DNA of 22,788 nt from a virus (taxonomy: Duplodnaviria; Heunggongvirae; Uroviricota; Caudoviricetes): the IMG/VR virus record IMGVR_UViG_2703718798_000002, positions 1-22,788 of that record; one strand, 5' to 3'. The position numbers and the translations under genes were made by a program. Within the stretch, counting starts at the first letter, position 1, and every line of letters begins with the position of its first letter. The notes beneath the pieces were generated by a model. That model was not told the DNA's origin. It did no database searches and saw only the letters and a program-made list of their open reading frames with translations. Of the stretch, positions 20,752-22,748 are shown in pieces.

Positions 20752-22748
20752 GTGTTGTTGTTTCGGGGACGCTGAAATCTCCTGATGGTGAGGCGATATC
20801 AGGAGCAAATATTACCCTGACGGCGCTGACAGTTTCACCGGATGCGCTCAGCGGCACCAGTGCGTCGGCAGTGACCCGTGAAGGTGGATATTACGGAATG
20901 ACGATGGATCCGGGGGAGTATGCGGTTTCGGTGACGGTGAAAGGGAAGACTGCTGTCTACGGACGTGTGCGTATTGAGGGGACCGAAAGTACGGTGACGC
21001 TCAATATGCTGTTACGCCGCAGTCTTGTTGAGGTGAGCATACCCGGAGAGCTGCTGACAGATTTCCGGCAGATACAGAATAATGTGGCTGATGACCTTGC
21101 TACTATTCGTCGCCTGAATGAAGACACGGCGACAAAAAACACTCAGGCCACACAGTCAAAAGAAAGTGCAGCAGCCAGTGCGAAGAGTGCATCTGACAGT
21201 GCAAAGACGGCAACCAGCAGGGCGGCTGAAGCCGGACAAAAAGCGACTGATGCCACTGAGGCCGCGACCCGTGCAATCACAGCAGCGGGGAATGCAGAGG
21301 AAAGCTCGACCCGTGCCGGAGAGTCTGAAAAAGCCGCCGGAGCTGATGCAGAAAAAGCCAGACAGCATGCTGAAAAGGCCAGGCTGGCGCAGGAGAGCGC
21401 CGGAGAGATCCTTAAGCGGGCAGAGGCTGCCACTGTCAGTGCTGAAGAGGCCAGACGTATGGCTGAGAATGCACGGGGGCCCCGGGGGCCTCAGGGAGAA
21501 ACTGGTCCGAAGGGGGATGTCGGTCCTAAAGGCGAAACAGGTCCAGTGGGCCCTCAAGGGCCCGCAGGGCCGAAAGGTGAGCGTGGTGACGTTGGTGCTC
21601 AGGGGGCTGTAGGGCCCGCTGGTCCGCGTGGTGAGAAGGGCGAACAGGGGAAGCGAGGACCGCAGGGAATACCAGGCCTGAAGGGGGATACCGGAGAGCG
21701 GGGGCCTAAAGGGGACCAGGGGGATATGGGGCCAAAAGGCGAGAAAGGTGATCCGGGAGGTCCTGCAGGCCCGCAAGGTCCTAAAGGTGAACGAGGAGAA
21801 GCCGGACCACAGGGTCCGATGGGAGCACGAGGTGAGCGTGGGGAGACTGGCCCCCGAGGTGAACCTGGTCCTGCAGGTCCGAGAGGCGAACGAGGAGAGA
21901 CCGGACCACAGGGTCCGATGGGAGCACGAGGTGAGCGTGGGGAGACTGGCCCCCGAGGTGAACCTGGTCCTGCAGGTCCGAGAGGCGAACGAGGAGAGAC
22001 CGGACCTCAGGGACCTCGTGGAGAGCCAGGTCCGGCAGGCAGCGCTGCAAATGTGGCTGATGCGACGACGGCACAGAAGGGAATTGTGCAGTTAAGCAGC
22101 GCAACGGACAGTGATGATGAAACGAAGGCAGCCACGCCGAAGGCCGTGAAGGCGGCAATGGATGTGGCAAATGAAGCGAAAACAAAGGCAGAAGAGGCTG
22201 CAGCAGGAGGTGGTGTTCCCGGTCCGAAAGGAGAGAAAGGCGACCCCGGAGCACAGGGTCCGAAAGGTGAAACGGGAGCAACAGGTCCCGCTGGTCCGCG
22301 GGGAGCGCAGGGACCGAAAGGGGAGAAAGGCGACCCCGGAGCACAGGGTCCGAAAGGTGAAACGGGAGCAACAGGTCCCGCTGGTCCGCGGGGAGCGCAG
22401 GGACCGAAAGGGGAGAAAGGCGACCCCGGTCCCAGAGGTGAGCGTGGAGAAACCGGGCCGATGGGGCCGCCCGGGGCATCAGACGGGAAGAGCCGGGTTG
22501 TGGGTATCAGGCTGGGTAATAAACAGACTTATGCGCCGCAAACAGACAGCACTACATGGGCAGTGGATTTGGATATTGGTGCGATGATTACGGGGATTGG
22601 CGGTTACAACGACGGAAACAAAACCCTTATTGACAGGGTATCTTACAGGCCGCTTCAGGTGACATTTGATGGTTCTCAGTGGCGTACAGTCAGCGTGGGT
22701 GAGTATGTGTCGTCAGGAGCGCCGGGGCGTGAGTATTTTTCATTATAA
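20748..22748 (+). CDS. Tail fibre protein with collagen-like Gly-X-Y repeats and phage tail-fibre repeat motif
   Basis: GTG start with SD GGAGGTGGA. Long Gly-X-Y stretches ([35 protein letters not shown]...) and the motif [30 protein letters not shown]. Confidence 0.85.
21789..22040 (+). repeat. 99-bp tandem repeat, about 2.5 copies, encoding Gly-X-Y units
   Basis: Unit gaacgaggagaRaccggaccacagggtccgatgggagcacgaggtgagcgtgggg... repeats at 21789 and 21888, with a partial third copy. Confidence 0.85.
22224..22429 (+). repeat. 90-bp tandem repeat, about 2.3 copies, encoding Gly-X-Y units
   Basis: Unit ccgaaaggRgagaaaggcgaccccggagcacagggtccgaaaggtgaaacgggagcaacaggtcccgctggtccgcggggagcgcagggac repeats at 22224 and 22314, with a partial third copy. 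Confidence 0.85.

Follow-up and report, generated by a model that had tools for sequence, protein, structure and literature searches.

The 22,788-bp window analyzed here is the entire draft contig LOGT01000167.1 of assembly GCA_001606525.1 and, from position 3228 on, carries the late region of a 933W-type Shiga toxin (Stx) phage (ca. 96% identity, by similarity to annotated phages). Close to its end lies a gene for a tail-fiber protein of 666 amino acids (20748–22748, plus strand, GTG start) with two long tandem repeats in its collagen-like shaft, and it is the anatomy, the relatives and the likely origin of these repeats that we describe below. The open reading frame (ORF) overlaps at its start with the upstream adaptor gene (20101–20751, plus strand; SU10_adaptor / DUF6682, PF24175, E 5e-32), and this gene order is equal in all relatives. 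The encoded protein matches the Pfam families Collagen (E 3e-46, in six stretches) and Phage_fiber_2 (PF03406, E 5e-18, amino acids 440–481) as well as phrog_366, “tail fiber protein” (E 6e-163), which bears out a preceding sequence-only reading that had called it a collagen-like tail fiber. At the N-terminus, CarboxypepD_reg scores above its Pfam cut-off, and phage_tail_N stays below its own (21.6 bits vs. a cut-off of 26.6 bits).

At the DNA level, the fiber gene matches 188 phage records, nearly all of them from Stx-converting phages and including 933W L0121 and VT2-Sakai H0137, and 465 of the 5,426 complete E. coli genomes searched. Identity to the tail-fiber genes of 933W, VT2-Sakai, and many other Stx phages is 98–99%, with 5 mismatches to 933W L0121 and none to phiSTEC1589 over the first 723 nucleotides (nt). 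Judged by these comparisons, we identify the gene as the lateral (side) tail-fiber gene of a short-tailed 933W-like Stx1a prophage and as a homologue of 933W L0121, Sp5 ORF67, and phi24B gp61. Fibers of this kind have been described as EPclB, with the architecture PfN-PCoil-Col-Pf2-Col-PfC (Ghosh et al., PMC3368898). The protein from the window shares with 933W L0121/Z1483, Sp5 ORF67/ECs1228, phi24B gp61, and Stx2Ip020 the gene position after the adaptor, a near-identical N-terminal domain, coiled coil and first collagen region, the Col-Pf2-Col layout, and the 99-nt unit described below together with its flanks; it differs from them in a C-terminus that stays below the cut-off of Phage_fiber_C and in a crossover unlike that of the known two-copy allele. 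In Sp5, ORF67 is indispensable for infection and has been located at the end of the tail by immuno-electron microscopy (PMC5155283). The cryo-electron microscopy structure of phi24B shows six lateral fibers, each a trimer of gp61, whose N-terminal domains bind the adaptor ring through a gp62-gp61 contact, followed by a coiled coil from residue 100, a collagen-like shaft at residues 243–567 with a short-motif interruption, and a small C-terminal globular domain (preprint 10.64898/2026.04.10.717836). The trimeric, tail-located state has been shown for these two proteins only.

The fiber from the window follows the same plan, i.e., an N-terminal attachment domain, an Ala/Ser/Glu-rich coiled coil, a first collagen region, Phage_fiber_2, a second collagen region, and a small C-terminal globular domain. 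Its Gly-X-Y runs span amino acids 244–339, 341–433, and 492–578, the first two being interrupted by the motif GDPGGPAG, which is the form taken here by the EPclB-type interruption GxPGGPxG. Collagen region 1 (21477–22046, plus strand) thus comprises 32 + 31 triplets and one such break in 190 amino acids; a single Phage_fiber_2 repeat (22065–22190, plus strand) separates it from collagen region 2 (22221–22481, plus strand), which has 29 triplets (87 amino acids), compared with 19 or 9 in relatives with one or zero copies of the 90-nt unit introduced below. The last ca. 88 amino acids (22482–22745, plus strand) form a globular domain that is a variant weakly like Phage_fiber_C (PF06820, E 0.03, 15.1 bits, under the cut-off of 25) and probably constitutes the ligand-binding tip. 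Identity to E. coli strain 48 is 100% over the C-terminal 319 nt and over the 40 nt that follow the gene, and DNA comparison with relatives makes mosaic segments visible within the gene. The 666-residue protein, with either V or M as first residue, has no exact match in a collection of 15 billion proteins, and the contig of the window is the only one found to encode it.

Tandem Repeats Finder reports two arrays in this gene, one with a period of 99 nt (21776–22012, 2.4 copies, 95% matches, score 432) and one with a period of 90 nt (22224–22429, 2.3 copies, 99% matches, score 405). When the DNA is compared with itself at these lags, unbroken identity extends over 106 nt in the first array (21802–21907 equals 21901–22006), reaching out to 21789 with two mismatches, and over 107 nt in the second (22233–22339 equals 22323–22429), reaching out to 22224 with one mismatch. 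The two long repeats that had been noticed between 21789 and 22429 are thus present, though “perfect” describes slightly more than one full unit per array and not the outer ends, and ca. 200 nt of non-repeated DNA, the Phage_fiber_2 segment, lies between the arrays within this interval. The units are arranged head to tail, their lengths are multiples of three (99 nt are 33 codons or 11 Gly-X-Y triplets, 90 nt are 30 codons or 10 triplets), and the fiber ORF runs intact across both arrays.

For comparison with the arrays, the collagen-coding DNA was shuffled 300 times by its 9-nt blocks of one Gly-X-Y triplet each and, separately, by codons within position classes. The longest exact repeat was 29 nt in the block shuffles (mean 17) and 21 nt in the position-class shuffles, while the remaining 20.7 kb of the window contain none above 20 nt and the other Gly-X-Y segments of the fiber gene resemble each other at 60–82% only. 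With exact repeats of 106–107 nt against a shuffle maximum of 29 nt, chance is excluded as their origin.

The history of the 99-nt array becomes visible when the region is aligned between fixed anchors in ten alleles. The one-copy form, found in 933W, TL-2011c, strain 48, STEC1590, and RM10410, can be written a-b-a', where a (GAACGAGGAGAAGCCGGACCACAGGGACCGATG) and a' (GAACGAGGAGAGACCGGACCTCAGGGACCTCGT) are imperfect direct repeats of 33 nt that differ at positions 12–13, 21, and 30–33 and share no stretch longer than 10 nt. The window instead reads a-b-a*-b-a' on the plus strand, with a at 21789–21821, a first copy of the 66-nt unit body b at 21822–21887, a hybrid junction repeat a* at 21888–21920 that is the novel joint of the duplication, an identical second copy of b at 21921–21986, and a' at 21987–22019. 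Body b corresponds to the “arrangement b” of GenBank entries AP004402 and AP005153 with a phase offset of 4 nt. The hybrid a* has the sequence of a' at positions 1–13 (including the diagnostic positions 12–13) and that of a from position 21 (including 30–33), which places the crossover in positions 14–20 (CCGGACC). The two-copy allele of Stx2 phage I and E. coli O157:H7 86-24 has the same general form, but its hybrid is of a' type through position 21 and of a type at 30–33 with a crossover in positions 22–29. Conversely, the Stx2a phage EH1965 has zero copies and a single hybrid repeat with an a-type 5' end and an a'-type 3' end, as expected of a reciprocal deletion product.

Private to the window among the alleles aligned is a T at position 27 (GGT instead of GGA), present in the first a (21815) as well as in the hybrid (21914). 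Together with the different crossover, this sets the 99-nt duplication of the window apart as an event of its own, independent of the one in the O157 lineage and later than this single-nucleotide polymorphism (SNP). If the array had instead been inherited or recombined from an O157-type allele, the shared unit, position, and copy number would be accounted for, as would the collagen region 1 of 190 amino acids in both, and Stx phages do recombine freely, as the mosaic segments in the fiber gene illustrate. However, such an origin is at odds with the middle repeat, which has A at position 21 in the window and T in the O157 allele, and with the private T in the window alone. In addition, by its flanking SNPs the window belongs to the phiSTEC1589/STEC1590 lineage (723 nt free of mismatches) and not to the O157 lineage (5 mismatches), and complete genomes with two copies are just 98.5–98.8% identical to the window over a 401-nt query spanning the array. 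We therefore regard descent from the O157 allele as very unlikely and an independent second duplication as the better account.

This 401-nt query also served to score copy number, with matched spans of 203, 302, and 401 nt corresponding to zero, one, and two copies. Phage records mostly carry one copy, including 933W; two copies were found in ST2-8624, Stx2a_WGPS9, and Stx2 phage I, and none in a group of Stx2a phages with LC616xxx accessions (16 of 60 sampled rows, e.g., LC616032). Among the 60 best-ranked records of complete E. coli genomes, nine show the two-copy span, including three assemblies of 86-24 as well as OK1, and none has three copies. A diagnostic 22-mer across the 99-nt joint is unique in the window and absent from the other fiber alleles compared (L001–L013, L015–L019). 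Its single match in IMG/VR was considered as a second occurrence and rejected, being an unrelated, different mosaic allele.

The 90-nt array is built along the same lines. One-copy relatives read c-d-c', with flanking repeats c (GGTCCGAAAGGAGAGAAAGGCGACCCCGG) and c' (GGACCGAAAGGGGAGAAAGGCGACCCCGG) of 29 nt that are identical over their last 17 nt, and the window reads c-d-c'-d-c' on the plus strand. Here, c lies at 22221–22249, a first 61-nt unit body d at 22250–22310, the novel joint of c' followed by d begins with the c' at 22311–22339 (with the crossover in the 17 nt common to c and c'), an identical second d occupies 22340–22400, and the terminal c' lies at 22401–22429. The fiber of RM10410 has c alone, i.e., the deletion product with zero copies. 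At the best-matching place, each of the 40 complete genomes with this module (Phage_fiber_2, collagen region 2, and the C-terminal domain) shows the one-copy span, as do both phage records in which the module occurs. Two further genomes, LZSFT34 and JNEC-KY208, have the zero-copy span only, and RM10410 combines its zero-copy Stx-type allele with a one-copy lambdoid allele. No two-copy allele was found in the 40 complete genomes, in the two phage records, or among the cluster representatives from a protein homology search, and neither IMG/VR nor the JGI metagenome contigs nor the GTDB representative genomes contain a 38-mer of the joint between c' and d. By these comparisons the 90-nt duplication is private to this contig among all sequence collections searched. 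With alleles of zero, one, and two copies of both units among the window and its relatives, all in frame, the comparison across related prophages supports the earlier suggestion of recent duplication at a hotspot of expansion and contraction.

The module itself is mobile on a larger scale. It occurs in up to six places per genome, often in long- and short-tailed prophages of one and the same genome, and its presence in both lambdoid and Stx fibers implies that it moves between phage types. Repeat-bearing modules thus travel between short-tailed Stx phages and lambdoid prophages. Most carriers are lambdoid side-tail-fiber genes downstream of gpJ that are followed by a DUF4376 gene. As an example, E. 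coli FHI_NMBU_11 (L017, 1282–3722) encodes the Phage_fiber_2, collagen 2, and C-terminal module with the 90-nt unit, followed by DUF4376, in a lambdoid prophage just after gpJ.

A third change concerns Phage_fiber_2. Relatives with the same C-terminal domain as the window (phiSTEC1589-Stx1c, strain 48, STEC1590, O22:H8 154, RM10410, and others; 97–99% DNA identity over shared parts) have fibers of 718–790 amino acids with two Phage_fiber_2 repeats and, between them, a domain of 184 amino acids without Pfam match. They carry one 99-nt and one 90-nt unit (zero of the latter in RM10410), whereas the window has two of each and lacks the domain. This domain, which starts with KADGCLEKAKNGDD and is encoded by 552 nt (ca. 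2790–3340 in L004, strain 48), is absent from 933W-type fibers as well. In the single Phage_fiber_2 repeat of the window, identity to the first strain 48 repeat is perfect as far as 22135 and identity to the second is perfect starting at 22125, and the overlap of the two matches places the deletion joint in 11 nt of identity (22125–22135). The joint is unlike the 933W arrangement, no complete E. coli genome matches it better than 97.3%, and its 25-mer is absent from IMG/VR. The lengths add up exactly, with 2364 nt of the strain 48 gene + 99 − 552 + 90 = 2001 nt of the gene in the window, so that three repeat-mediated in-frame events explain the whole length difference.

Other alleles of this gene show further changes of shaft and tip. 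OkiPb01677 (L012) has an in-frame deletion of 70 collagen residues between two GPKGERG motifs, and phiSTEC1589 and STEC1590 (L003, L005) both have an in-frame 9-nt indel (GPR) at the start of collagen region 1. The virus record IMGVR_UViG_2721755653_000006 (L020, 3531–5576) encodes a mosaic fiber of 681 amino acids with a different C-terminus, a triplicated Gly-X-Y unit of 21 amino acids, and a second copy of a block of ca. 85 amino acids from collagen region 1.

The sequence-only reading had warned that such repeats can collapse in assemblies, an apt caution for a draft contig. It has to be asked whether the two-plus-two copies or even the whole mosaic arose when short reads from several prophages with shared fiber modules in one genome were assembled, as a chimeric contig or with true copy numbers that are different. 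The contig ends 40 nt past the fiber stop codon, and in relatives a multi-copy DUF4376 gene starts 42 nt past this stop, i.e., 2 nt beyond the contig end. Exact repeats of 106–107 nt would form cycles in a de Bruijn graph, in which more than two copies look like two unless reads span them, and four “partial” fiber proteins from other drafts (P0010–P0013) stop inside the 90-nt unit. The module is found in two or more prophages per genome, and the allele with two copies of each unit and the Phage_fiber_2 deletion occurs in no other record. On the other hand, both duplications and the Phage_fiber_2 joint contain sequence that is absent from one-copy alleles, as captured by the diagnostic 22-, 38-, and 25-mers. 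An assembler would have needed reads with these joints, given that the identity between c and c' extends over 17 nt and that between a and a' over at most 10 nt, below the usual k-mer length. Two-copy alleles of the 99-nt unit exist in closed long-read genomes, and all three changes keep the frame. The private T in both copies also fits a duplication after the SNP, although a graph cycle would equally force identical copies. Since the joint sequences are absent from one-copy alleles, the reads must have contained at least two copies of each unit as well as the Phage_fiber_2 joint, and an origin of the allele in assembly is in our view unlikely. The presence of two copies per unit is real as a lower bound, and copy numbers from short-read assemblies are unfit for typing or for predicting fiber properties.

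The interpretation that we favor, with a probability of roughly 85%, is one of two in-frame tandem duplications in the collagen-like shaft of the side tail fiber, each of a segment bracketed by short imperfect direct repeats. The repeats a/a' or c/c' would mispair during replication, by slippage or template switching, or recombine unequally, and this mispairing would yield either a duplication or the reciprocal deletion. Hybrid junctions are found in products of both kinds, i.e., a'/a in two-copy and a/a' in zero-copy alleles of the 99-nt unit as well as, for the 90-nt unit, the joint from c' to d of the window and the single c of RM10410, and all copy changes in the alleles examined keep the reading frame. 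As the crossovers lie in 7–17 identical bases, microhomology or slippage seems likelier than classical homologous recombination for the founding events, and the junctions would then mean that shaft length changes recurrently through a simple mechanism. The perfect copies of 99 and 90 nt that result would be far better substrates for further gain or loss and thus much less stable.

Several points weigh against this interpretation or limit its reach. The allele stems from a draft contig in which the exact repeats exceed the k-mers of common assemblers, and its combination of two duplications with the Phage_fiber_2 deletion was found in no other record searched. Crossovers of 7–17 nt alone do not discriminate slippage from exchange mediated by phage Red or host RecA.

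Fiber genes of phages are the usual target of diversification systems, which brings up programmed variation by a diversity-generating retroelement or a phase-variable contingency repeat. The repeat copies, however, are identical without adenine-specific differences, they stand in tandem, and they lie in the shaft and outside the ligand-binding tip. Units of 99 and 90 nt, as multiples of three, cannot shift the frame by a change in copy number, and similarity to annotated phages shows the window from 3228 on to be a late region typical of Stx phages. An invertible segment was considered as well and rejected, as the fiber gene contains no inverted repeats. We give programmed diversification next to no credence.

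For the virion, the expected consequence of the duplications is a longer shaft. The fiber would be a homotrimer present six times per virion that docks with its N-terminus on the tail adaptor, followed by a long and flexible triple helix of Gly-X-Y triplets that ends in the small C-terminal domain. The collagen triple helix rises by 0.286 nm per residue, so that the shaft would be longer by ca. 9.4 nm (33 residues) and ca. 8.6 nm (30 residues), respectively. Neither the attachment domain at the N-terminus nor the tip at the C-terminus is altered by the duplications. An effect on adsorption is conceivable, and should adsorption through O-antigen layers depend on shaft length, this variation would have a bearing on the spread of Stx phages.

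A bolder proposal is that the shaft serves as a length-tuning locus with repeated, independent gains and losses at the same microhomology sites. Two separate 99-nt duplications, the reciprocal deletions, the new 90-nt duplication, and the collagen indels of sister alleles might then be its traces, and selection might match the reach of the fiber to the depth of O-antigen or capsule, or to the distance between tail and capsid where the tip is thought to rest. Stx phages would in this case adjust adsorption or host range via shaft length instead of the receptor-binding tip. We consider this idea improbable as it stands. For the change in fiber length itself, bacterial surface proteins offer an analogy. 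The number of Gly-X-Y repeats sets the length of exosporium filaments in BclA of Bacillus anthracis (Sylvestre et al. 2003, cited by PMC10470788) and scales with binding and biofilm formation in Lcl of Legionella pneumophila (PMC6460258). BclA and Lcl resemble the fiber described here in that the in-frame copy number of Gly-X-Y repeats varies among strains, but their units, on the surface of bacteria, are numerous and short (e.g., 45 nt in Lcl; PMC2639597), whereas the phage fiber has long units of 99 and 90 nt in zero to two copies.

Variation in the copy number of the 99-nt unit is already known, having been annotated in 2003 and tabulated in 2012. GenBank records from 2003 contain repeat_region features with the arrangements aba' (AP005153 and AP005154) and ababa' (AP004402), for which PMC3368898 cites Sato et al. 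2003. The table of Ghosh et al. lists collagen lengths of 157 amino acids for 933W vs. 190 for Stx2 phage I, with Col lengths differing by multiples of three (PMC3368898, 2012). New, as far as these comparisons reach, are the independent second origin of the two-copy state of the 99-nt unit, the reading of the zero-copy product as a reciprocal deletion, and the occurrence of a 90-nt duplication together with a new Phage_fiber_2 deletion joint in one allele. Overall, the finding is an ordinary one, of use as a warning for assembly and annotation, mildly interesting as a case of recurrent shaft-length change and unsurprising to a specialist.

The fiber gene also attracts errors of annotation. 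On the minus strand, an ORF of 232 amino acids (21781–22479) covers most of the arrays, and the sequence-only reading had attributed such spurious ORFs to the repeats. The extra copy indeed lengthens this ORF, but an equivalent is already present in one-copy alleles (591 nt in AP005153 vs. 690 nt in AP004402), and the antisense frames across the collagen and Phage_fiber_2 region are stop-poor throughout, with 3, 1, and 4 stops in 333 codons vs. ca. 14 expected from the window average. This depletion across the whole collagen region identifies the antisense ORFs as a by-product of Gly-X-Y codon composition. Neither the ORF at 21781–22479 nor other overlapping ORFs have a Pfam match above noise, and real antisense or overlapping genes were rejected on these grounds, although antisense ORFs had been entered as coding sequences in the 2003 records. 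The Stx-prophage fiber gene is thus error-prone in drafts and in automatic annotation, where contigs break, the Prokaryotic Genome Annotation Pipeline (PGAP) produces fragments, and antisense ORFs are called genes. In NZ_CP038408 of strain 86-24 (L016, 1049–3085), PGAP splits an intact fiber gene into two partial pseudogene fragments, with no annotation for the collagen part, and many O157 genomes bear the same pair of fragment product names.

Upstream of the fiber, the window has the gene order of 933W with stx1a, a sialate-esterase-type gene, lysis genes, terminase, portal, and an N4-type capsid gene. The toxin genes lie at 3760–4707 (stx1A) and 4717–4986 (stx1B), and their proteins are ones that we take to resemble the classical Stx1a type. 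Compared with the Stx1c genes of the closest phage record, 921 of 948 bases (A) and 257 of 270 (B) are identical. None of the best-matching Stx phage records listed has an equivalent of the first 3227 nt of the window, their matches all starting at 3228. Directly upstream of stx1a, this part contains an N6_Mtase gene (366–2075) and a gene for a type I specificity subunit (2150–3235), and it looks as if this methylase/specificity pair (366–3235) has been inserted near the Q-stx region. Two shorter repeats lie elsewhere on the contig, a GCGACCA tandem of 3.9 copies at its very start (1–27) and a 12/24-nt tandem repeat at 11673–11742 (AAAGTGCGCAAA-like, ca. three copies, 71–87% matches). The latter falls within an ORF at 11513–12364 just upstream of a packaging/terminase gene of 568 amino acids (12345–14051).

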